From assembly GCA_000182565.2 (NCBI GenBank), contig KQ257463.1: DNA of 47,616 nucleotides; one strand, given 5' to 3'. The notes below the pieces were generated by a model that searched no databases, had not been told where the DNA came from, and worked only from the letters and a program-made list of their open reading frames with translations. The translations under genes were made by a program, and so were the position numbers. Within the stretch, counting starts at the first letter, position 1. The number at the start of each line of letters is the position of its first letter. Positions 9,125 through 36,966 of the stretch are shown piece by piece. The DNA is from Spizellomyces punctatus DAOM BR117. Its lineage: Eukaryota.

Positions 9125-10022
9125 TGCCGGTATGCATGAAACTGTCAGTATGCTTGTATGTGCGAAGAAAAGCTGCAAAAGGCCATTTGACAAGGTCAAC
9201 TACCAGAAATGTGAGGGGAGCCCGCGACTGTACACCGTGGACTCAGCATCACTCCTGCACCCCTCCCTCAGGCACCGCCCGCGGGCGGTCACCTATTCCC
9301 GTCAACCCAGATATTCTTATATAATTGCCCGTGGGGAGCATGAGAGACTGTCATATACTCTGATGGATAGACACAACAATAATCGGTCTATAAGCTCCCG
9401 CAATAGACCAAGGCCGGGCGCCATTCTGTGTCGTATGGAGGAGCTGAGTAGGCAGATTGATATCCCATTTCAGAGAAGAAATACTTTTACACATTTAGTA
9501 AAGTCCGCTATTTGTTGATATTGTAAAGGGCAAAGAGGGCACGCCCGCAGGGATGTGGGCTTGCCAACCAACGTTCTCCACGGTTGCTGGTTCCTGCTGA
9601 CTAACATTTTGGGGCGATTTGCATATGCTGTCCATGGCGACTAAAGTGTTACTTTTATAGCCTTCTAAAGGAAAGTATTATACAGCTTGCTGAATATGCA
9701 GAAAGTGTGTATGGAGAAGATTAGCGTAGGAGTTTCAATACCACCACTGACAGCACAAAACCTATATCCTCGTAGAGTCGGTTAGGTTGCTGTCAAGAGA
9801 GCAATGGGATGCTGATTGGTGGTCAGTGTACTGCGAACTATGGAGCTAGATATGTAGACGAGAGACCTTTTGAACCTCTAAATTTCAAATGTCGTCGGTC
9901 CGTCGGAGCAACGGAGGGTCGAAAGCTTTTTGTCCGAAAAGCTCGGACCGCGTCGAGGTTGGATGCGGCGTATCCAGCCCTCAGCGCACATTTGCTTTAT
10001 CAGCATAACAGCTGCTCCAACC

Positions 10023-11079
10023 ATGCTAGGCTTTGCCGACAACACAACAGAATACGAGCGAAAGCGACAGGAGAGGATTGCTGCCAACCAGGCACTTCTT
10101 CAAAGCTTAGGGATTGAAAGACCGCCCGCTGCACAACCGTTCAGCAAGGCCAAACGCAAAGCCAATAGTGAAGACGCTAGCACACCTGTGGTAAAGAAGA
10201 AGAAAGTAAAGGTCGTCAAGGAGGAGGCTGTAATTGAGGATGATAGCGATCAAACCCTAGTCAGACGGTCTCGGCGGTTGCGGGATAAACCTACGCCCAG
10301 TTTGAAAGACGAGAACATGTACGAAGAAGTGAAGGAGGAGGACGATGGCTTGGTTTCGGTGCCAGTGAAAGAGAAACTCCGGACCAGATTGAGTAGAACG
10401 AGTAGCAAGAAAGTCCCTCGGTATGTTTTGCCACCAATATGCCATACGATGGGATCTTGTCTGAGCTTCTCGTTTTCACAGTGAAAACACATTTGGACAC
10501 ATCCCAGGCGTCCCAGTAGGAAGGAGATGGGCAATGCGAATGGATTGTAGCCACGATGGAGTGCATCGACCTCCTGTTTCAGGCATCCACGGAGGCCCAG
10601 ACGGATGTTATTCCGTGGCACTTAGTGGAGGATACGAAGACGACGTTGATTTTGGTGAAGCCTTTACATACACTGGTGAGGGCGGTCGCGATCTGTCGGG
10701 AACTAAAACAAACCCAAAGAACCTGCGCACAGCTCCACAGTCGAAGGACCAGGTTCTCGACAGAGGGAATCTTGCGCTATGGAAGAGTGCGCAAAACGGC
10801 CTGCCAGTTCGGGTTGTGCGGGGATACAAATTGCCTAGCCCTTACGCTCCGGAAGAAGGGTACAGATACGACGGGCTATACAAGGTGGAAAAGGCATGGA
10901 GCGAAACGGGACTAGCGGGATTTCTGGTCTACAAGTTTGCATTGAAACGGTTGCCGGGCCAGCCCCCTTTACCACGCAATGACGAACAAGACGCAAGTTT
11001 TTGTTCAGAGGACGAGACCAAAAACGTTAAACAGGTGCCTGATTCTGATCAGGATGTTAAATCACAAGAGAACGAATAG
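10023..11079 (+). CDS. SRA/YDG (UHRF1-type SRA) domain protein, 2 exons
   Basis: Intron 10421-10481 joins to [13 protein letters not shown]...[12 protein letters not shown]...[28 protein letters not shown]...VRVVRG...GYRYDGLY, a canonical SRA domain. Confidence 0.95.
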
Positions 11080-11842: not shown

Positions 11843-12210
11843 TAGAGACAAGAGAGTACTTTTATTGCCCAGACCAAATATATTTACAAGACTCTTTCTA
11901 TAAAGTACAAGAACGTCGACGTAGAGAGAGATAATTTGTTATGGCGTTCTCGAGGGACTTGCAGACAAGCAGCTTAATCGCTCGTTGGGATCTTGCACAG
12001 GAAGGGTTTTCCTAGGAAGGCAAAGAGGTTGCCGTGGTCGGTTCGCACTTGTGGAGAAGGTGGAGGTCATCGCGGCCGCTTCGCACTTGTGGAGTAAAGG
12101 TCGAGGTTGCCGTGGTCGCTTGGCACTAGTGGCGTAAATGTCGAGGTCACCGTGGCCGATTCGCGCTTGTAAAGTGAGAGACTGTGATTGAGGACCGGTG
12201 CTTCGCACTG

Positions 12211-13691
12211 GAAAGGCAAAGAGCGTGAAGCATGGGAAGAGTAGAAGCCCAAGTCGAATGCGCCAACTCACCTCAACCTGGTGCCACCCTGCACTTTACT
12301 TCTTTGACGACACGCATTACCAGGCCTCCCGCGCCGAGCCGTAACGCGGCCAACCGAGCCATTTCAGTTCTTCTTTGACGGCGCGGACCAACAAGCCGAG
12401 TCGTGTCGTGAACCATCCGGGCCATTTCACTTCTTTGACGGCGCGGACCAACTAGCCGAGTCCTTTTCTCAACTTGCTTGACGACATGGACCAACAGGCC
12501 GGGCCGTGTCGTGGAACCTACGTGCCGGTCGGTGGAAGCGGACATCGTGGTGGATGTTTCTGAAATGTAGAAAGATGAAGCTGATGCACCAGTGCAAGTA
12601 GAATCAAATAGACTTACTTGTAATTGTCTCCAAGGAGCAGAAGGAAGGTCGAGGTCGCCGTGATCGCTTCGCAGGGGCCGTGGTCGAGATTGCCGTAGTC
12701 GCTTGCCGTGGTCGAGATCGCCGTGGTCGCTTCGCACTAGTGGAGTGAAAGACCGTGATCGAGGACTGAAAGGCAAAGAGGGTGAAGCATGGGAAGAGTA
12801 GAAGCAAAAGTCGAATGCTCGCCAACTCACCTCAGGCTAGCCTGGTGCCACCCTGCACTTTACTTGTTTGACGGCACGTATTACCAGGCCCACCGCGCCG
12901 GGCTGTTTACTTGTTTGACGACGGGCCATCCGCCGGGCAGTAACGTCGGGAACCACGGGCCATAACGCGTTCCTACGAGCCTTTTACTTCTTTGACGACA
13001 TGGACCAACGCCGGAGGTAGAGATTGCCCGTGGCCGCTTCGCACTTGTGGGTGAGAGACCGTGATCGAGTGTTAGACTCGGTTGAAAGCCAAAGAAGATG
13101 ATGCAGAATACTTACTTCATTCGCCAACCTTCAGCGCCTCCGCCTAGCGCGTTGGACTCGGTACGAGCCGACGTCCGACGCCGACTCGTCGGCAGCCTCT
13201 CTATAGTCGGGGGTTCGCTTCGCACTTGTGTGGTCGCTTGCCGTGGTCGCTTCGCACTTGTGCCGTGGTCGCTTGCCGTGTTCGCTTCGCACTTGTGCCG
13301 TGGTCGAGATCGTCGTGGCCGCTTCGTACTTGTGGAGTGAGAGACCGTGGTCGAGTCTGAAAGGCAAAGAGCGTGAAGCATGGGAAGAGTAGAAGCCCAA
13401 GTCGAATGCACCAACTCACCTCAGCCTGGAGCCACCCTTCACTTTACTTCTTTGACGACACGCATTACCAGGCCACCCGCGCCGAGCCGTAACGCGGCCA
13501 ACCGAGCCATTTCAGTTCTTCTTTGACGGCGCGGACCAACAAGCCGAGTCGTGTCGTGAACCATCCGGGCCATTTCACTTCTTTGACGGCGCGGACCAAC
13601 TAGCCGAGTCCTTTTCTCAACTTGCTTGACGACATGGACCAACAGGCCGGGCCGTGTCGTGGAACCTACGTGCCGGTCGGTGGAAGCGGAC
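12211..13691. repeat. 333-bp near-identical duplication with a third partial copy and short GCCGTGGTCGCTTCGCACTTGT-type repeats
   Basis: 12211-12543 and 13359-13691 differ at about five positions by eye. A more diverged partial copy lies at 12768-12900. Short motif clusters at ~12030-12210, 12650-12760, 13020-13060 and 13215-13350. Confidence 0.95.
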
Positions 13692-13737
13692 GTCGAGGAG
13701 CCGATGGTCGATAGTGCCGGACGTTGAGGAGCCGAAG

Positions 13738-13887
13738 GACCGATGCTTGAAGACTGAAGGGGCGACCGATGCTTGAAGACTTGAAGACCGAGAGGCGACC
13801 GATGCTTGAAGACTTGAAGACCGAGAGGCGACCGATGCTTGAAGACTTGAAGACCGAGAGGCGACCGATGCTTGAAGACTGAGAGGC
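13738..13887. repeat. 33-bp minisatellite
   Basis: GACCGATGCTTGAAGACTTGAAGACCGAGAGGC is perfect at 13764, 13797 and 13830, with shortened units at 13738 and 13863. Confidence 0.95.
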
Positions 13888-13930
13888 GGAAGACGAGGAT
13901 AACTGACTGGGGGAAGGCGAGAAAGGGTGC

Positions 13931-13939
13931 CTTTTTATA
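13931..13939 (-). promoter_or_regulatory. TATA box
   Basis: TATAAAAAG on the minus strand upstream of the repeat-built unit. Confidence 0.5.
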
Positions 13940-14037
13940 ACTTTTCAGAGGCCCCCCGGATGCGGAGAAAAAAAAACCCCCAATGCCCCATTTTTTCGTT
14001 TTTTCTTCTCGAAAGAATTCCGTGTTCAGAAGATGAA

Positions 14038-14104
14038 GTCATATGGCATGCCAATATACGCAAAGATCAGGAAGATAAGGTCATATGGCATGCCAATATA
14101 CGCA
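14038..14104. repeat. 25-bp exact direct repeat containing palindrome TGGCATGCCA
   Basis: GTCATATGGCATGCCAATATACGCA at 14038-14062 and 14080-14104 (42-bp period). Confidence 0.9.
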
Positions 14105-25268: not shown

Positions 25269-28121
25269 TTATTTTCTTCTTCCAGTGCCCATACTCCACG
25301 ACGACCTGGTTGCCGCCCCCCTGGCTAATACTGCACTACTCCTCAGGTCCGCACTCGATCGTGCGGCCAGGACCTTACCCTTTTTAGCTGCTGCCGCTTT
25401 CATGAGCGCCTGGAATGTTTTCTCCCCTGGGTCTGATGGGCTCGTCATTTCGCGTGCAGGGGGCAGATGCGGCATCGACTGTGTCTGTGATAACTTTTGT
25501 GGGGTAGCGCTACTTGGGCGATAATTGACCTGAGGCGTTGTGGCACCCTTCTCGCCAGATCCTCCGCGTTGGATGATTGAAAGCTTTGCAAGGAGTTCCA
25601 TCCGCTCCTCACATTCCAATCGAACCGTTTCCTTTAGGAATTTAATTTCGGCTTCTCTTTTGGCCAGTGTTGATTTCAAATCTGCGAGCTCCTTGGGATC
25701 AGTACATGGTTGCGAGGATGGACGAGCGGATGTCAGTGCCAATTGTTCCTCGAGGGCCCGAATACGCGCTTGGTAGTGAGCGAAGTCTGCGGCATTGGAT
25801 GACTGCATAGTATTCGCTTAATGCGAGCAGCTGAGGCACTGAACGAACGAACCAATTTCTCACCTGCAACTTGCTGAGCTGCTCATTCAATACGGCGTAC
25901 TTTCGCTCCCAATTTTCTTCAGCGTGCGTCACTTGGCGAGCCGCCCGAAGATCTGCTTCATCTTTCGCGAGCCGCAATGCATCAATTTGTCGCTGCAGAC
26001 GATCCCGCGCAACATTCATTTCCTGTTGCCCGAATATGACCATCAATTACCGGGTGATCGCTCAACATTTTGCGAGAACCTGATCTTACCGTATTCAAAG
26101 TCTCTCTGAGATGTCGAAGTGCTTCCTCTTTATCAGCTGTCAAGGTTCGGCGAAGTTCTGCTTCACGTTTGTCGGCCTGCAAACATAGAACCGTATATCG
26201 TCAAGATCCACCTTGCATTTGGTATACGATTTAAGTCTACCTCCGTTCGTCCGGCTTCTTTGATGTCTTCCAGGAACTTATCTTGAAGCTGTTTTATCCT
26301 ACTTTGATGCGCTTCGATGGTTTTTTGCCTAAACTTCTAGGTAAGAATACAACAGATCGAAAACATTTGTATTGTGAACAGCTACCTTTCCGCGCGTAAG
26401 CCTTGCATTGTCGAATGAAGATCCCGGACAGTGCGCTCCAAAACGTGGACTTGTTCCTGCGCAACATTTAAGTGGGTTCAGTAAATTCCACTCAGGCTGT
26501 GAGAACAGGTATGTACACACATCTTTTTGCGCCATGGCTCTGTGAGCATTGGCGAGAGCAGTGCCTCCTTCCTCCAGAGACCTCCGCTCTTCCTTGAACC
26601 TGTCCAATGCTTCTTTCAATTCTCTCTGTCGGTTGGGTTCCTTTACTCTTCATGACATCCTGACCAACTATTGAGACATTATAGCGTCATACCTCCTTGA
26701 GTGCAACTTTCCCATCCAACACGGCGATCCTGTTCTCGAGAGCACATATGTCTTTCTGATGAAGATCTTTTTCTTGAGAAAAGCGGCTCTCTAGCTCATG
26801 CATTCGGGTGCGGAGCTTATCACGTTCATGCGTCAAGTCCTGGAAGCGTCATGTTGCCTGGTTTAGCATAAATTCTTCGTCAAGGGACTTGTGAATACGA
26901 TGCGTACCGCAACCAGGGTATTTGCGGCATGCAGCTGGTCCTCCAATTTCAAGCAAGTCGCTTGTAAACCTTGGGCGTAATCTACGAAAAGGAATTAGCC
27001 GAGTACCCACCGTTGTGATTACGGACCATTGCATTCTAACTTTTTTGCGTATTTATATGCTCGGATGCTTCCAGTTTCTGGATGTTTATATCATGCATAA
27101 GGCGATCATTTCGGTCTTGGCTGTTGTTCAAGGAAAATCAGTTCGGTAAATTCATCAACGGGTTGTTCCTTTCTATCCCTCACCTGTCCTGCAATTCCCC
27201 TCGTAGGTTATCCAACTCCTTTTGCAGAATCCCCATATCCCCCTGAGCTTTCAGCTGCGTTGCCTTTCGAACCGCTTCACACTGTTTACGCAGATAGGAA
27301 TTAAACTGGCCGGTCAACCCCTGCTGAACGGTTGGCAGGATCTCTCGGAGGTTGCGCGAATACCTAAACAATCGTTCGAGTGATATGAGCGTCATCGAAA
27401 ACGTTCCCCTTAAAAGTCTGTAGCTTACGTCTGTCGCACATCTGCCTTCACTATATTGACTTGCTTTCGTTGATCTAAAAGTTCCGCGCGTATACTCGTG
27501 AGAATTTGGACAAGCTCGTGTATTTGCCGTCGCTGATCTTCCTTTGCTTTTGAATATTTCTGTCGCGATACTTCCTAACATTCGTATCTTGTTTTAAAAT
27601 GCATGAGGTTTGGGGCAGAATACACAGATCCACATACTAGGTCATTGGTAACCCTTTGATTCTCGGCCTGCGCATCTTCTAAAGCCATTCGAGATTTCTG
27701 TGCATCTTCCTGCACCTTCTTCAACTGTTCCTCTAATGCCTCATTTTTCCGAGCGGCTTTTTGTTGTGCGTCGCTTAATGAATCCATTCGAGCTAGTAAT
27801 TCAGGCCTCTCACGAGCATAATCCTGGATAAACCGAGAAGGACAGGAAAAGGTATTAGAACAAGTTTCACAAATGCCCAAGTTGCAACCAACCCACCTCT
27901 CACCCCACCTGCATGCTGCGCAAGTCCTTTTCCAATCCCTTGACATGTTCTTGCATACGCTCATACTTTGTCAGAAGAAGGTATGATATTCCACAGTACT
28001 GACATGCTGTCTCAGCTTCGGACATTTGAAGGATTTCCTCTGGCAATGGATGATAGGGGGTCAAATCGGTAGATGGAAGATATAGCGAGCTTGCGCTCTC
28101 GTAAGGTGCTTGGCTCGCCAT
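25269..28121 (-). CDS. LEKR1: LEKR1-like coiled-coil protein, multi-exon
   Basis: N-terminal PYHPLPEEILQMSEAETACQYCGISYLLL and C-terminal LKETVRLECEERMELL resemble the conserved LEKR1 blocks. Intervening exons are E/K/L-rich coiled coil. Confidence 0.8.
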
Positions 28122-28314
28122 TTTGAGAAAGTGAGCTCAAACAAACTAGATCGCCCTGGTGAACTGCCAAAGATCCAAAAAGACTCCGCACCAACGATTC
28201 GCGTGACTAACCATGTGCTTATCTCATCACCCTCATCATGATCAGACTGGATTGGCAAAACGAGTCACTTTTCACACAACGTCCAGATAACCTATACTCG
28301 ACGAAGAGCAAAGG

Positions 28315-29983
28315 ATGAGCAAAAAGCCGCCAGCAGCGAGTACTTCCCGAGTGTCATCAGCAGTGACATCAAAACTGACCAAATCCTCCACAAACTCGAC
28401 AACCCGCCTCTCAACCACATCTAAACGCAGGCCTGGATCGGGAAAATCAACCAGCCAGACTTCACTCGCAAATTCCGGTTCACGGGCCAATCTCGGTTCT
28501 CGGTCCGTCAGTAGGGCTTCTGTCCGGCCTGGTTCCGCTGGTGAGAACAAGTCCAGGGGAAGGACACCTCAAGAGGGGACCGTTGCGTCGGTGGAGGATG
28601 AGGTGTTGAAAGAGGATCAAGCTGTACCAGATGTTGAAGAGATTCCAGCAGTAAATGAAGAAGCAGAGTATCGTAAAAGAGTTGAGGCGCTGCCAGTACC
28701 TTTTGAAGTGTTGAAGCGAGGATTATCAAATTTGGGAAGATCACCTGAAGAGCTAAAGCAAGTTTACACCAAGTTATCGATACCGGTTAGGACAACCTGT
28801 CGGATTTGGACGCTAATTATTCCAGTCAATGCCAGTCAATGTCACTCATACATTGATATTTCTCACTAATTAGAATGCAAACATTTCCCAAATCTCTTTC
28901 CTCCAAAACTATCGGTACCTGCAAATTCTCGAACTGCCCGGAAATAGCATCTCGGGTTGGGACGAAAAGTGCTTTTTCATGCCATAGCATTGTACCTTTC
29001 TGATTACTTGCACTGCGCTAGATACCTCCACACTATCCCACTTGCGCTATCTGACACACCTTGATCTATCGGGCAACAAACTGACCAAAGCCCTCGATTT
29101 CGATCCCCCGTACAATCTCCAACACGTTGATCTTTCCAAAAACCAAATTACAGAGATTGGACAGATGGGACGGCACAGATTCCTGGCAAGATTGTGTTTG
29201 GATCGTAAGTGCCCAACCACATTGGTTTCGTTGTGGATAGGAATACCCTGATAACTATTGTAGTTGATAGGGAATCTGATCCGAACAATTAGTGGGCTGG
29301 AGGATTGTAGATATTTGACTCACCTCAGTTTAAGGAATAATGGTATTTTGATGATTGAGGGATTGGAGGGCCTACCTATTCGGTATTTGGACCTGGTAAG
29401 TCAGAATGTTGGTTGATCTATTGAGACAGAGAGGTTTGTGCTCATCTTTTGCGAAACATCCATAAAGAGATATAACCGTATTGCCAGTCTGGAAGGCCTT
29501 GCAACACTTGGAGACCTTGAAGACCTCTACATTGGACACAACTGTATAACAAGTCTAACACCACTCCCCAGTCTCCCATCCCTTCGTCTCATCGATCTAT
29601 CCTTCAACAATCTAAACAGTATTGACTCATTGGCTCAGTTACAAGTCCTCATACATTTACGGGACCTCTACCTATCCGATAATCCATTAACAAATTCACC
29701 ATCCTATCGATTGCGGACTGTATTTCTCCTTTCTCAACTCACGGTCCTGGATGCTCTGCCCGTGTCACCCGAAGAAAAAGTTGCGGCGATCAACAAGTAT
29801 GATCCACCGCCTAGTGTGGTTGCGAGTGTGCATCATGCAGCGATGCTAAAGCGGCAGATTAGAAGGGAGGCGAGGATTAATAAAGTGGATATTATGGAAG
29901 GAGATGGATCTGGAGGTGAAGAGCTTGAACTGGAAGCCTTGGTGGAGGTTGTTCATCCAGGGGAGCGCTGTTCATCCGTTTGA
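28315..29983 (+). CDS. LRGUK: LRGUK-like leucine-rich-repeat protein (LRR region only)
   Basis: LSNLGRSPEELKQVY, SDS22-like LRRs, LRRcap NPL...YRL, and EEKVAAINKYDPPPSVVA matching the LRGUK post-LRR motif. No guanylate kinase P-loop follows. Confidence 0.75.
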
Positions 29984-30184
29984 TTCCATAAAGGGCCAAC
30001 GCAACGATATCTCATAGATTTGTTTTTGACATTTGTGGAATCTCTTTGGGATGTGGTTACGCATCAGTCGCTCTAATATACATGTTTATACAGTCGTGCA
30101 GGATATATGTTGCATGAAAATTTGTAAATTCGGTTCGGTTCCTTCCCAATATTCCACTCAATAAAATCTTTGCTATATACATGT

Positions 30185-33165
30185 TCAAAGATACTTGGGT
30201 CGTTTGCGTGGAGTCACAGTATCGTTCGATACACTCTGTTGATCATTTGAATCGACCATGAATCGCCACGACAAGCGTCGTCCTTTACGTGACAAGCTTG
30301 TCGATTGATCGTAAGAGAACGTCCTGCTTACTCGCTCAGTAGAGCCATCTAAATTGCTATCGGTACTTGATTCTTCTGATTCAGCATCACTGTCGATATC
30401 AATCACAGTTGATTCAGGCTGGACGGACGGGGACGTTGATGCGGGGCAATCGCCGAGAGTTTGCAAATGATAGTCTGACAGTTTAGCCGGATTGGGGCGC
30501 TTATCGCGGAATCGATGATACAGGTCGAATGCAGGCTCATATTCCGATTCTGATTCTGATAGAAGGGATATAGGCTCCTTCGCTCCATGATACTCCCGGG
30601 TATGTCTCACTAAGCTACGTTTGGAGTTATATGCTGTACCGCAAGGTTGACAATAATGCTTTCTTGGACTGCGAGTGGGTCTGTTGAACTGGGCAGCTGC
30701 TGAGCGATGGCTCATAGATTCATAATGTTCCAAGAGTGAAGACGGCCTGCTGAGAGTCACATCACACACTTGGCAATATTGTTCCGACTGTGCGCTCTTG
30801 GGTCGGGCGGGACTGTTCCTCTCGCGAGTCGGCGTGTTTAATTGTGCAACTGCTGCACGATGCCTCATCGTTTCAAGGTGGCTCAAAAGTGAAGACGGCC
30901 TGGTGAAAGTCACGTCACACACTTGACAATATCGATCCGACTGATTGCTCTTGCGATAGGTGGGACTCGTCTGATCGGCTTGAGCTGGACTTTCCCTACG
31001 ATGCTGCGGGATGGTCTCCTTGACCTTTCTTTGATGCGTTGCGGAACGCTTTTTATGAACCTCGAGTGATTCCAAAGTATCGAAATGCAATGAACAAATT
31101 TCACACATGTAGGTTATAGGGATTGTTCGGACGGAGGGTGGGGTTGGATAAGGGGACTAAGAAGAGTCAGTTAACGAGATTGCGGTGCCAGAATATCAGA
31201 TTGCATGATGAGAGGTTTTACCGTATTAGTAGTGGACAGCATATCGGACTCCTCTGCCTCCGACGACCATTCGAAAGAATGATCACTATAGTGCTGATCA
31301 GGCTCTTCGAACGGAGATGGGGGCCTGATGGCCGGTGCGGTGGTTCGTCTCAACAACCCTTCGATGTCTCGCTTCTCCTCGTAATTTGGCGTCACCAATG
31401 TGTCATTGACCAGGAAATCGCGGATTGTGAATTTTCCTTGCAGTCGATGCGGTTTGTTTATCTTGATCGTATCTCGACCTCCCCGTGTCTCGCGAACATA
31501 GTCAGACGTGAATTCACCCATCACGTTTGCTTCCTCTTCCGTAAAAGGATCACCGCCTTTGACGACTTCAAATGCTCGTTCAATCCCAAAATATGCTTTT
31601 GCCTTCCAAAATCGCCAAGCGTAATCAAAGTGGGCAATGGCGGGCGTGAGTACCACGTACCATTTCTGCGAAGTTTCTTCTCGAGAGGATCCTCGGCCCC
31701 ACGTTTGCACTACTTCATGGGCTGCGAGACTCAAGTCCGCGACCGAAACCAAACCGATGAGTGGGTCGTGAAACGCCACTGTGAGCATCCTCACTAATAT
31801 CACGATCTGAAGTTCTGGGTCTTTGGTATGGAGGTCTTTGATGACCTTTTCGGTGCCACACGACCTGTATGTCTCGCTCGTGATGACTCGCACTGCCTTT
31901 ACGCCCAGCAGCTCAGTAAAGAGTTTCTCGTAAGCTTTTGCGGTTGCGATATCTGCACATCTATGGATTGCATACAGCGCGGGATGTATCGTCGCGCGGA
32001 GATGCCCGATGAGAACTGCAATGCTTTTCGCATACGTTCTTTGAACGACAGGTTCTTCCAACAATGCCCGGCAAAATGCTTTGGACGTGCAAGATTCGTG
32101 TTCTATTTGTCGTTTGCTTAATGTAGAAGAGTTCCAGGTAAGGCCGACTTCGTCTAGGTTCATTTCTACTTCAACAAAGACTGGATTTTTGTTCGTTTGT
32201 TGTCCAGTCTCCATGCCAGTTTTGATCGCATCTGCATCTCTGAGCTCGAACAGTATTTTATCTTGTGACTGTGGGGTGGCTGTCAAGCAAATAACATGAG
32301 CATGAGGGAATCTCGTTTCAACACTGTTAACCATTTCAGACGACAAATGGGACTCATCAATGATGATGAGAGTCGGATCAATCAGCTTGTCCATTTGCCT
32401 CTTCTTTTCAATCAACCGATCTGCTTCTCCTGAAATGGATGAACAACGTTGCTCGATATGGTCAACCGCCGCCTTGCATTTTTCGGTAAATGTTTGAAAA
32501 GTAGAAAACAGTACGGTTGGTGCGTGGGATTTCTTCCACCACGGTCGACGACGGGAAGATTTGTGCTCAGAGCTAGCAATGACCGTGAATGTCTGACTAT
32601 AAAAGTCCCGAAAGGTGAACATTTTATCGCAATCAAAGGGAAGCCTCGAGCAAAGGAAGTCTGCAACTTGGGCGTTATGTTGATTCGTGTTCCCGCACAG
32701 CACGACATGGAGTGAAGACGTGGGATGGATATATGCGGAAAGGAAAATGACAGGTGTCGTTCTAGGTCGGAGGTAGAACTGAGCCAAAAGGGCTACCAGC
32801 GCCTTTCCGGATCCAGTGGGCATTACAACGGTTCCCCGCACAGGTCCATTCCTCGGAGCGCTGCCCGTTCCCAACCTCTTCAGTGTCCTGAGCGCCTCTA
32901 TCTGACCAGGTCTCAATTTCCGCTCAAATATACACACGTCGTGAATTGCGTCCAGAAACTCTTGCTGCACTCGTCTATGCACCGCTTGGTTTCGACGCAG
33001 TTCATTGTCCGTACTCCTTGTTTGGAATTTCAGCTTTTGCTCCAAACCTTCAACCTTGAGCTTGAGTGCCGCTATCTCGCCGTCCTTGTCTTGAAGTGAC
33101 TGAATCAGGTATGTGCAATTCGAACAGCTTGGTGCGGTGTGAGTATGGTTGGCTGCTAAGGGCAT
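30185..33165 (-). CDS. SF2 (ResIII-like) helicase fused to four C2H2 zinc fingers, 2 exons, ~971 aa
   Basis: Exon 1 33165-31222: LRPGQ, MPTGSGKA, IIIDESH, LTATP, QTWGRG. Phase-0 intron 31221-31157 (GTAAAA...CTGAC...TTAG) reads in frame as STTNT|SPYPTPPSVRTIPITYMCEIC into ORF 30185-31108. Confidence 0.8.
30735..30945. repeat. Intragenic 153-bp (51-codon) zinc-finger duplication
   Basis: YCQVCDVTFTRPSSLLSHLETMRHRAAVAQ vs YCQVCDVTLSRPSSLLEHYESMSHRSAAAQ; DNA anchors AGTGAAGACGGCCTG at 30735 and 30888. Confidence 0.9.
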
Positions 33166-35022
33166 TTTGAAAAAGGTTGCAACAACTCATGCGCGAGACA
33201 TGTCGAGGGATGGAAAGGGGGGACGTTAAAAAGCATGGCGGAAGTGGCCAAGAAACACGCCAGCAAGCTTTTTGACGGGGAAATCGCGATTTGACAGCTG
33301 TGACCTTTTGATGGGCGACCCCCGTCTTTCAGAATAGTTGCATTGACGTCTTCCAGACCCCTCCTTCATAAGGCTCACAAGGCAAGATGAATTGTGCGTT
33401 CAGTTCAGCCTTCATTCATTTGTCGTGCATTACAAGATTTGCACAAATTTAATGATGATAGCATGTGAATAACATGGATTGCTGGCTCTGCAAGGGAATG
33501 ATTGTCGTGCTAAAAATGACCAAATGTGACATTTGAGATACATGCATCCCGGTATTCTGAAGTGTGTTCCATCTTGTAATATAAACCTGTTTGCATCCTC
33601 CGGGCGCAACATCAACTAAATTACCATCAAGACCGTTGGTCTGAAAAGACTAGGAGACTGTTAGTCAGAAAAGATGGACGATCAGTGAGCACTGTTGACA
33701 AGAATCATGGATTTCCGACATATCATGTGCGGATAGACTTGAGAATTTTACCTTGTCCACCGTACGGAGGAGTGTGAAAAAAAACCCACTCATCTCGCGC
33801 ATTCTGTACGAGGTACAAGTGGTCTAAATCTAGCATTCGTTTTCAGGTCGGTCCGCAATATCGCTTTGGACGGACAGTTTCGCAGTACCTCCACCTGCAC
33901 ACAATTGGATTTGGACAATGGAACCTGGCCAAAATGTCCATTGGATACGGACAGGAGTTGTGCTATCCTCTGAAGCCTGTACAATCGGCTTTGACAATAC
34001 CTTCGTCTTCTGGCACATGCGAGTTGCGGAAAATGAGAAAAGATCCAATTAACCTCTGTTACCTTTGCTAAGGCATACCTCTTGTCATTGATTCCAATAA
34101 CGAGTCATTGTGGAAAAGGTACACTGTATCACGGCAATGTCGCCATCTAGACAGATAGCGGAGCCGTCCGAGGTTTAGGTCCACCTCGAGTATCTGCACA
34201 TCCTCCATCTTGCATTAACCATGTGATCTGTACATTTGAGTTATGGTTATGCCGGCGCTCTATAAACAAATCTAGAGACATTGTACAGGAAATGGTTTTC
34301 AAAAGGATTACACGATAGAATCTTACAATGGCGCATCAGTTATAGATAGCCAACAAAAGAAACGAGTTCCGGTATACAGGACTCTCTTGGAAAGAAAACA
34401 CAACCTTGTGCAAATCATTGAACAATTGGATATGGGTTGTTTTGAGGGCTCCTGTTAGAGGATGACACAGGTCACGATCTCGTCGCCAATAACCATCATC
34501 TTTGAGGCCTTATTTAAAAGGATGACAATGAGTTGTAAGTTTCGTATACTGTTGGTTTTGGAGCACAAGGACCGTCGAGGAGGAGCCAAGTATGTGACAG
34601 TTTTGGCCCATAGTGTACGAAAGCAAACTGTATTTGTGGTTTCATTCAAGACGAATGTTCATACATATCCTACTAACGTTCAAGGATTTACAAACGGAAA
34701 AGATGAGAGAGATGCATGGAATGTTCAGTAGGTTAGTTGATGCATACCGCTCATGTTGCGCTCCTCATCAATAGTACTTTAAAAAGATACAATTCCATCT
34801 GCATAAAAGTCCGAATGCAAGTCACGTGGCTATTTTTCTGTCCAAAAGTCTCAACTCTCCAACATGTCTTTTTCAAACAATAATTTATTAACAAGAAATA
34901 TAAAGTTATAATACAAGAAACAAGCAAAAAAAGATATTCGCAATCAATGCAAGAATAAACGGCAAATGTCAAAGAAACCGCCACAGATGGGTATTAAGCG
35001 GTTCGTTCAATGTCGGTCCATT

Positions 35023-36966
35023 TTAAACGGTCAACTCTCGAACAATCTTGACCTTTCCCCCAATGTGAACCTTTTTCCACATTTCCCTCTTGGCTTCTGT
35101 GCTGGCGACGCGTTTGACACTCGCCGGTAATGCAGGCGTCGCCTCCAACAAGGTCTCAATAGCAGCCTCGAGTCCCATGCGGTGAATGGCAAACAGCGAC
35201 CAGGAAAATGTGCGGACAAAGGCGTCCACGTCTGCGAGGCGGTTGAAGCGCTGTTCATTGAGCGTCGATGCGAGGGAGCGGAGGAGGCCGCGTGTAGCAT
35301 CCATGGGGAGGTGGGTGGCTTCTTTGGGGCAAGCAACGAGGTGACCCATGGCGGTCGTGTAAATGGGGTGAACCTTGTGATACTCGGCGTCATCGGCTTC
35401 AAATTGGACGCCCGATTCGTTGGTCCGAGAAAGGTTGAGGAGCCAGACAGCCATGGTGAAGGCAGGCACGCGAATCACGTCAGTTTTGTTGCCAGTGGCG
35501 GCCATGGCGCGCTCGACCGAAGACAACAATCGGTCAGAGATTTTGCTGGTTGCTCGGGCACCGACGCGGCGAACAGTGTCGTTGAGACTAGCATCTGAAA
35601 ACCGGTTTCGGATGCATTCCGTGTACTTTTTGAGTTCAGCAGGCTTGCCGCTGAGGAAGGTGCACCATTCGTTTTGTGCCTTGGTGAGGAGTCGAGCAAT
35701 GGTTGGCTTGTGCATTGTGTCGTGAATGTACTTGCAGCCAAGCCGGTGGCCGCAGGTAGCAACGATGAGATGACCAGCATTAAGGCAGTAGAATTTACGC
35801 TGCCAGTACTCGGCGCAAGAATCGACAACTTGCACGCCAACCTTTTCCCAGCCGGGAGTCGTCTCGGGGAATCGTCCGCGCTCAACAACCAGTTGGCGGA
35901 AGGATTCGCAACCAATGGTCAGAGTCGAGTCGAATCCCATTTCCTTGTGTGCGTCCTTGCGGAACGCCTCGGTAGGCTCGGGTGTGATGCGGTCGACGAG
36001 CGTAACGGGAAAGTCGACATTGTCGTCAACCCAAGAGACCAGCTCAGGGTCGACAAGCTTGAGAAACTCGACAAACACTTTTTTCATCGTGCTACTGTTT
36101 TGCTCGATATTGTCGAGAGACATGATCGTCATGGGAGTCTTGATGGTCTGGGCACGAAGTCTGAGACCGGCTGCAAGGTAACCGTAAATAGATTTGGGTC
36201 GGTCGGGTTGTGCCAAGTCGTGAATAATGTCGGGATGCAACACATCGAGTTTGCCGCCTTCGGCAAGGTAGTATCCCTTGTTGGTGACTGTGACGGTAAC
36301 CATCTTGATGTTTTCCTCGCCCATTCTACTAATGAGAGCACGAGGATCTTTTGGACCAAACATGGTGTCTACCACGGGAGCGAGTACCGAGGAGCTGCGG
36401 TTCTGGTTCTCACGGACGACGAGGACGTACATGCCGTCTTGCTTGCGAAGAGCAGAGATGGTCTTGTTGCTTCGGATGGATGTGGCGACAATACCCCATC
36501 GCTGGTCGTGCTCGAGCATGTCGTTGACGTACGATGCCATGTGAGCAAGGGCAAAGTTTCCGGTACCAATGTGGAGGATACCGGGCGTCACAGTAGCCGG
36601 GTTGTAAGCGGGGCGCTTGACCGTGGCGGGCAGCTGATGCAGAGTGCTACGACAGAGCTGGTAGCAAGGCTTTTTGGGAACAAGATCTTCGGCACTGCCT
36701 GTCTTGATGCGGTTGGCATTGGGTCTTGAAGCGAGTTCGGTCAAAATGGCACGAGCTGCATCGAGCTTGGTCCGTACGAAATCCTTTTGCAAGGTTGGGT
36801 CGACCTGGGATTTGCGCTCATAGTGCTTCTCAGTGTCGCCAGCGGCACGATGAAGCTTCTTGTCTTGAACGCGGTATGCAGGAGCCTTTTAATTTTAAAA
36901 GGGGGGCATTTGTGAGTAAAGACTGAAATCAACAAAAGTAAAAGACATGTCCTTGAAACTCACCAT
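35023..36966 (-). CDS. Long-chain mannitol dehydrogenase family oxidoreductase
   Basis: GILHIGTGNF, TVTNKGY, MSLDN, LVDRITP and catalytic K-x4-N-x2-H (KFYCLNAGH). ATG-only first exon 36966-36964 and intron 36963-36886 (GTGAGT...AAG) give in-frame MAPAYRVQDKK...LQKDFV. Confidence 0.9.

Follow-up and report, generated by a model that had tools for sequence, protein, structure and literature searches.

The sequence analysed here, called the window below, is a 47,616-nucleotide (nt) stretch of contig KQ257463.1 from the chytrid Spizellomyces punctatus DAOM BR117 (assembly GCA_000182565.2), and its subject is the gene SPPG_07176. This minus-strand gene has two exons and one intron, and codes for a product of 971 amino acids (aa), in which a superfamily 2 (SF2) motor of the ResIII type is followed by four C2H2 zinc fingers. 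SPPG_07176 is a real two-exon nuclear gene that has already been deposited as a hypothetical protein: the translations of exon 1 (residues 1-648) and exon 2, when joined, agreed letter for letter with the public 'uncharacterized protein SPPG_07176 [Spizellomyces punctatus DAOM BR117]', and the public gene model uses the same intron. What was already known is this public annotation; otherwise it is an ordinary uncharacterised lineage-specific gene. It is single-copy as judged from protein databases, which held one S. punctatus member of the family. The transcription unit was composed of the following parts.

31222..33165, minus strand: exon 1, coding sequence of 1944 nt (648 aa), with the N-terminal coiled coil and the entire SF2 helicase core.
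31157..31221, minus strand: intron of 65 nt in phase 0 (between ACG and TCC), GTAAAA...CTGAC...TAG.
30185..31156, minus strand: exon 2, coding sequence of 323 aa plus stop, with the linker, four C2H2 fingers and an acidic Ser-rich tail ending RKRPKYL.
30019..30184, minus strand: 3' untranslated region (UTR) to the probable poly(A) site near 30019, from the depth of RNA run X7 and reads with a T-run.

The component open reading frames (ORFs), 31171..33165 (664 aa) and 30185..31108 (307 aa), lie on the minus strand with 62 nt between them. An earlier note, made from the sequence alone, had joined them into one gene by a 65-nt phase-0 intron, and the exact match to the public protein bore this out. 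The minus-strand junction text is ...ACT AAT ACG, then the intron GTAAAACC...GTTAACTGACTCTTCTTAG, then TCC CCT TAT..., with a branch-point-like CTGAC element 10 nt ahead of the acceptor TAG and a pyrimidine run between the two. Retention of the intron leads to an in-frame stop TAA at 31173-31171. The scan of 12 GT donors yielded 73 frame-keeping GT-AG pairs of 36-400 nt, among which the chosen pair (31221-31157) was the sole one below 160 nt and retained the most coding sequence. The alignment with the orthologue of Spizellomyces 'palustris' (88% identical) ran unbroken over the exon junction, and 11 of the 16 open codons ahead of the ATG of the second ORF (31108) were identical in that species. 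Splicing of 31157-31221 is thus argued from the sequence signals, from these open and conserved 16 codons, and from the helicase-finger fusion that recurs in distant relatives.

If the intron were an annotation artefact, the locus would hold two separate genes, one for a helicase and one for a finger protein. This would agree with the second ORF having its own ATG at 31108, and with the donor GTAAAA, which is without the G that the usual donor consensus has at +5. The RNA data also count against the spliced model to some extent, as no read of run X7 (3'-biased, with about 6 in 100 of the run read) lay over the intron 31157-31221. Contigs of the three runs X1-X3 passed the intron unspliced and the intergenic DNA without gaps; being gapless through both, they look like DNA and are silent on splicing. 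On the other side, the distance from the stop of the first ORF to that ATG is only 62 nt, the 16 codons before the ATG are open and conserved, the fusion recurs in Phlyctochytrium and in the relative P0008, and the CTGAC element and pyrimidine run stand ahead of the acceptor. Two separate genes were considered extremely improbable.

The gene was shown to be transcribed. In X7, a raw RNA sequencing run with the same species label, the depth in the minus direction fell from 34.6 at 30134-30250 through 11.4 at 30251-30367 to 3.2 at 30368-30484; only scattered reads lay deeper inside the gene, and four reads carried a loose T-run before 30019. The minus-direction depth and these four reads fit an mRNA polyadenylated about 165 nt past the stop. 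A plus-strand leucine-rich repeat (LRR) gene (ORF 29417-29983) converges on the helicase gene within 29900-30250; its plus-direction reads extended to about 30133-30250 and the minus-direction reads began at about 30017, from which the two 3' UTRs seem to overlap by about 100-200 nt. Such an overlap could give rise to natural antisense RNA.

The encoded protein was shown to consist, in order, of a coiled coil, a two-lobed SF2 motor of ResIII / XPB-RadD-like type, a disordered linker, four fingers, an acidic Ser-rich tail and a basic end.

32944..33123, minus strand: N-terminal long helix / coiled coil (residues 15-74), from the low-confidence full-length model; helix at model residues 2-17 of the core model.
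32269..32919, minus strand: RecA-like lobe 1 (residues 83-299), Pfam ResIII, E 2.8e-13, 50.5 bits against a cut-off of 22.5.
32800..32820, minus strand: motif I / Walker A PTGSGKA (residues 116-122), Ala replacing the Ser/Thr of P-loop NTPases.
32347..32358, minus strand: motif II DESH (residues 270-273), D and E invariant, H replaced by Q in five of eight family members.
31366..32118, minus strand: RecA-like lobe 2 together with a C-terminal subdomain specific to the family, W..WK.....G (about residues 350-600), from the alignment and the core model.
31681..31707, minus strand: motif VI QTWGRGSSR (residues 487-495), second Arg one place past the usual GRxxR.
31034..31105, minus strand: finger 1, C-x2-C-x12-H-x6-H (residues 666-689), from Pfam and motif reading.
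30860..30928, minus strand: finger 2, C-x2-C-x12-H-x5-H (residues 725-747), best zf-C2H2_jaz / zf-met match.
30707..30775, minus strand: finger 3, C-x2-C-x12-H-x5-H (residues 776-798), duplicate of finger 2.
30587..30652, minus strand: finger 4, C-x2-C-x12-H-x4-H (residues 817-838), from motif reading.
30671..30967, minus strand: internal duplication, source of fingers 2 and 3; copies 30671-30814 and 30824-30967, 77% DNA identity, 153 nt apart.

The ResIII score agreed with the reading in the earlier note of a ResIII-like SF2 core on one uninterrupted exon, whose length of 1.9 kb is corrected to 1944 nt; the Pfam DEAD score of the protein was 27.9 bits. The fingers had been described there as matrin/JAZ-type, three with H-x5-H spacing and one classical. 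The type was upheld by the Pfam matches in exon 2 to zf-C2H2_jaz (E 5.8e-15, 55.5 bits against a cut-off of 22.6) and zf-met (E 1.7e-14, 54 bits against 21.2), while the spacings had to be corrected to H-x6-H, H-x5-H, H-x5-H and H-x4-H. The finger part of the family profile matched chains of REI1/REH1, ZMAT2 and ZFa in the PDB. As for the N-terminus, the coiled coil stood, the long helix being common to the family and the coiled coil being much longer in the Rhizophlyctis members; the proposed CxxC (CSNC) is probably meaningless because it is missing from the Phlyctochytrium protein.

Fingers 2 and 3 are the product of a recent tandem duplication. The finger-2 counterpart in the S. 'palustris' protein P0004 (residues about 715-745) was without the CxxC pair, and given this loss in the sister species the finger number is shifting over a short time scale. 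The tail, corresponding to the last 133 residues (839-971; window 30188-30586), contained 24 Ser, 13 Asp and 10 Glu. Within it stands TVIDIDSDAESEESS, which reads DVFDIDSDAESEKSS in S. 'palustris'; here a hydrophobic core leads into an acidic Ser-rich run, a pattern that may correspond to a SUMO-interacting motif.

The family to which the protein belongs was shown to be very small. The word-indexed search of 5.8 billion proteins returned three at E <= 0.001, self included, the other two being a 966-aa protein of S. 'palustris' at 88% identity and a 930-aa protein of Phlyctochytrium arcticum at 37%. The exhaustive phmmer search of 1.84 billion representatives detected six relatives at E <= 0.001 (P0004 and P0006-P0010), with identities to SPPG_07176 of 88% for one and 39-26% for the rest. 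Rhizophlyctis rosea contributes two hypothetical proteins, P0009 and P0010, which share 36% identity, and P0006 is similar to the Phlyctochytrium protein, with identity at 632 of 871 aligned positions. The ResIII domain (PF04851) was above its gathering score in P0005-P0010 as well. All named members come from chytrids (Spizellomyces, Phlyctochytrium and Rhizophlyctis), and the family has been seen so far only in the Spizellomycetales-Rhizophlyctidales chytrids. A keyword-level search of the literature found no mention of SPPG_07176 or of an architecture of ResIII motor plus zf-C2H2_jaz. The impression in the earlier note of an unfamiliar architecture was well founded, since it occurs in only a handful of chytrid proteins. 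Nor is SPPG_07176 a helicase shared broadly among fungi in the manner of Irc3, which the same note had named as a possible refutation; it is set apart by its distribution (six matches among the 1.84 billion representatives) and not by a comparison with Irc3. Fingers of the RNA-duplex type joined to an SF2 motor of the ResIII type are confined to a small branch of early-diverging fungi.

Within the family the motor was constant and the C-terminal module variable, consisting of one to four fingers, none, or another motif in Rhizophlyctis. Long-spaced fingers after the motor numbered four in S. punctatus, three in P. arcticum, two in P0008 and one in P0006; S. 'palustris' had three and one more without its Cys pair, and motif reading gave none in P0007 or in either Rhizophlyctis protein. 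The helicase-finger fusion thereby recurs in P. arcticum and in P0008 (31% identity). The C-terminal approximately 60 residues of P0009 and P0010 shared the motif GDPSK...MW.KLG..FP..Y...GR.DAYLYGHP, on which both proteins end. Its match to Pfam Clr2_transil was weak (17.4 bits against a cut-off of 27), the structure rows from the atlas were all under the bar, one of them being a Clr2 cluster, and a search of the PDB gave no sequence match to the motif. The gene models of the two R. rosea proteins may be truncated.

The reading of an acquired helicase in the earlier note implies horizontal transfer, with a prokaryote or a large DNA virus as the donor, and later domestication of the protein for nucleic-acid sensing or defence. 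Some results are in line with acquisition: the distribution is patchy and narrow, and the nearest outside sequences are metagenomic ResIII helicases (with a prokaryote-type Pfam set) and the phage family phrog_16. With the family profile, metagenomic ResIII helicases were matched at E 1.7e-13 at best, and PHROGs gave the catch-all phrog_16 at E 4.6e-13. The language-model neighbours were viral and bacterial ResIII clusters, which the tool warns is no sign of transfer. No near relative was found among these, however, as the best outside match by hhalign had 24% identity over 230 columns. Scans of viral and metagenome contigs confirmed 1 and 19, respectively, of 597 candidate stretches, all short motif-level matches of at most about 250 residues. 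The matches from NCBIfam and PADLOC, to HsdR, Cas3, XPB and RadD, were generic or sub-threshold; PADLOC gave nothing significant, only sub-threshold generic matches to Cas3 and type I restriction proteins, leaving the role of sensor or defence factor unsupported.

A phylogeny, which had been suggested as a check, also counts against acquisition. The maximum-likelihood tree (LG+G4, quick search, with Shimodaira-Hasegawa-like approximate likelihood-ratio test (SH-aLRT) support only) was built from eight family and eight outgroup rows, the long multi-domain outgroup proteins P0014, P0017, P0018 and P0021 being excluded. The family was monophyletic with an SH-aLRT of 100, and the Rhizophlyctis pair was outermost, followed by P0008, P0007 and then Spizellomyces with Phlyctochytrium. 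Read with the relationship between the orders Spizellomycetales and Rhizophlyctidales, this topology is compatible with vertical descent because Rhizophlyctis branches outside the Spizellomycetales members, whereas the outgroup sampling polarises the origin neither way. The gene has an intron and a GC content of 0.47-0.48, similar to the rest of the window, and its neighbours are ordinary eukaryotic genes (mannitol dehydrogenase, LRR, TACO1, HAD, Kelch, RGS, SRA and PUF genes). Vertical inheritance thus seems probable, reaching back to the common ancestor of the Spizellomycetales and Rhizophlyctidales or further, and acquisition followed by domestication appeared very improbable. Any transfer, if there was one, would predate the split of the two chytrid orders, with no identifiable donor left.

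Our favoured explanation for SPPG_07176 combines this anatomy and distribution with a proposed way of working. In the nucleus, the fingers would probably dock the protein on double-stranded RNA (dsRNA), structured RNA or RNA:DNA hybrids, as suggested by the Pfam description of JAZ fingers and by the profile matches to REI1/REH1, ZMAT2 and ZFa in the PDB. The motor would use ATP to translocate on, or to remodel, the attached duplex, and the coiled coil would probably serve for pairing or partner binding. Turnover of ATP would probably be slow or switch-like, because of the GKA Walker A, the frequent DExQ and the shifted second Arg of motif VI. The outcome would be a lineage-specific remodeller of R-loops or dsRNA, or one associated with chromatin, and not a classical RNA helicase. 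The anatomy and distribution can be taken with high confidence as described. The mechanism of RNA-duplex docking and ATP-driven remodelling is put forward tentatively, as a possibility more doubtful than probable, and we regard the explanation as a whole as evenly balanced between right and wrong. Should RNA duplexes or R-loops indeed be the target of the fingers, SPPG_07176 would offer a compact, naturally occurring example in which fingers that read RNA redirect a motor resembling a DNA translocase.

A number of observations weigh against this explanation, beginning with the catalytic motifs, for which the eight family members were compared with 12 outgroup helicases. The Walker A motif was GKA in five of the eight members, namely S. 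punctatus, S. 'palustris', P. arcticum, P0006 and P0008, and GKT in the other three, whereas all 12 outgroups had GK[ST]. The Mg ion is normally bound by the Ser/Thr that follows the Lys of the P-loop, and a natural protein with a conserved alanine at this place is an unusual exception to a nearly universal motif. Motif II was DE[VP]Q, without the His, in five of eight members as compared with DExH in 12 of 12 outgroups. When motif VI was set against QxxGRxxR, the Q, the G and the first R were invariant in the family, and the arrangement was GRxxxR in six of eight; the second Arg was Lys in P0009 and missing in P0010. SPPG_07176 may consequently be poor at ATP hydrolysis, as far as its motifs indicate. 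The fingers were evolutionarily unstable, with the Cys-pair loss in S. 'palustris', one finger in P0006 and none in P0007. The Pfam model Helicase_C (PF00271) gave no match to SPPG_07176 at E <= 1, and it scored 19.1 bits on P0009, below the cut-off of 23.5, although the second-lobe fold was present in the core model of SPPG_07176. The nearest folds were DNA translocases and not RNA helicases, and the RNA-directed role accordingly leans on the finger type alone. The suggested nuclear location comes only from the basic C-terminal end, and the literature search found no experiment or paper on the function of SPPG_07176.

The altered motifs would suit a pseudo-helicase, in which efficient catalysis has been lost and the protein acts as a nucleotide-gated scaffold presenting the fingers and coiled coil. 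GKA occurs in none of the 12 outgroups, DExQ is as frequent in the family as GKA, the second Arg of motif VI is shifted or, in Rhizophlyctis members, missing, and the Glu-Gly of motif V is replaced according to the alignment with P0011. Nevertheless, K121, D270, E271, T295, T297, Q487, G490 and R491 were invariant in 8/8 members; the Walker B Asp-Glu (D270, E271) and the motif III TAT (T295, T297) were present. Continued nucleotide chemistry is argued by Lys121, Asp270 and Glu271, by motif III and by the leading Arg of motif VI, all of which stay invariant across 21-88% identity; three members, moreover, keep GKT. A pseudo-helicase was judged clearly unlikely.

The structural results raised another possibility, that of a DNA repair factor or replication-fork remodeller acting on branched or double-stranded DNA, with fingers that contact DNA or protein. 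The core (residues 60-600) was modelled from a 15-row alignment with a mean predicted local distance difference test (pLDDT) score of 81.8 and a predicted template-modelling (pTM) score of 0.81, while the full-length model from three sequences was of low confidence (pLDDT 36.9). The all-against-representatives structural search ranked RadD first (Z 21.4 over 322 aa, root-mean-square deviation 4.1, 20% identity), followed by FANCM (Z 19.7), Ino80 and Ssl2/XPB (both Z 17.5), RecG (Z 17.2), DRH-1 (Z 16.8), Mfd (Z 16.4) and, further down, LGP2 (Z 14.7). Foldseek agreed, with RadD on top (E 2.2e-12) and then SNF2, RecQ, HsdR and XPB. The core model had two RecA-like lobes, both of which aligned to RadD, FANCM and XPB (Z 17-21), and the folds nearest to this model are those of double-strand DNA translocases and fork remodellers. 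The top matches RadD, FANCM, Ssl2/XPB, RecG and Mfd are all DNA translocases, and the profile match to archaeal XPBII (E 2.3e-6) points the same way.

These matches are nonetheless generic for two-lobed SF2 proteins, with identities of 11-20%, and the ranking means no more than an SF2 protein of the ResIII/XPB-RadD sort, since 231 chains were found at Z >= 8. A viral structure library gave only generic SF2 helicases (TM about 0.5), and the PDB search with the single SPPG_07176 sequence returned nothing relevant. The NCBIfam models of RadD and XPB were far below their cut-offs or absent, the fingers are of the RNA-duplex type, and a core repair factor would not be limited to a few chytrids. We therefore considered a role in DNA repair or fork remodelling rather unlikely.

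The comparison with known systems placed SPPG_07176 in none of the RadD, XPB, restriction Res/HsdR or RIG-I-like families as far as curated sequence cut-offs define them. RadD (YejH), an SF2 DNA repair helicase of Escherichia coli, is the best structural match of the core and has a ResIII-type first lobe in common with it; its model NF053632 gave no match to SPPG_07176 at E <= 0.1 and 20.5 bits for P0009 against a cut-off of 720. Unlike RadD, SPPG_07176 is eukaryotic, has an added coiled coil and C2H2 fingers, and is altered in motifs I, II and VI. The group of XPB / Ssl2 / Rad25 and archaeal XPBII provided the best PDB sequence-profile match, the one mentioned above, which lies around motif I only. 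As this match spans about 38 residues, SPPG_07176 is not considered an XPB orthologue; NF045503 did not match it, and scored 19.7 bits on P0007 and 21.1 bits on P0009 against a cut-off of 610.

The restriction motors HsdR and Res and the phage family phrog_16 share ResIII with SPPG_07176, and HsdR, LlaBIII and EcoP15I aligned to the core through the C-terminal subdomain (Z 15-16). In contrast to these motors, SPPG_07176 is a spliced eukaryotic gene among ordinary eukaryotic neighbours, with an identity of at most about 24%; Pfam matched no nuclease or methylase partner domain in it, a Pfam miss not being proof of absence. The finger type is common to JAZ/ZNF346, ZFa, ZMAT2 and REI1/REH1, which are of the U1/matrin type for dsRNA or structured RNA. 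These proteins are without a helicase, whereas in SPPG_07176 the fingers stand behind an SF2 motor and vary in number between close species. A motor tethered to zinc fingers exists in ZNFX1 and similar RNA sensors that combine a helicase with zinc fingers; ZNFX1 is, however, an SF1 Upf1-like helicase with NFX1-type fingers, and the present searches, none of them aimed at it, showed no relation to SPPG_07176. Dicer-2 matched the family profile at E 0.13 over 20 residues only, and the Z scores of the RIG-I-like DRH-1 and LGP2 are inside the generic SF2 range.

A more far-reaching proposal can be made from the variable C-terminal modules. The family would consist of chytrid-specific SF2 motors with interchangeable 'reader' modules, working as a machine for genome silencing or R-loop resolution under the guidance of duplex RNA or chromatin marks, and made slow and switch-like by the altered ATP site (GKA, DExQ, GRxxxR). 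The readers would be the dsRNA/hybrid-type fingers in Spizellomycetales and, in Rhizophlyctis, the motif with its faint likeness to the silencing factor Clr2. This proposal is speculative, and we consider it quite improbable.

The surroundings of the gene were also inspected. A mobile element was tried as a candidate and rejected, there being no inverted or flanking repeats around the gene. Rfam showed no RNA family over 28000-35500, and no tRNA was present in the window. In the stretch 12001-14000 the GC content was 0.568, as compared with 0.44-0.51 elsewhere in the window, and the ORFs 12273-12836 and 13439-14038 on the minus strand of this GC-rich stretch had no Pfam match. The ORF 10465-11079 on the plus strand contained a strong SAD/SRA methyl-cytosine-reading domain (E 2.2e-50); as it overlaps the ORF 9882-10484 in a different frame, an intron between the two is suggested. 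The upstream neighbour of the helicase gene, 35023-36888 on the minus strand, is an unbroken ORF of 621 aa of the mannitol dehydrogenase family (Mannitol_dh, E 1.1e-37), which is long and intron-free like the helicase exon.

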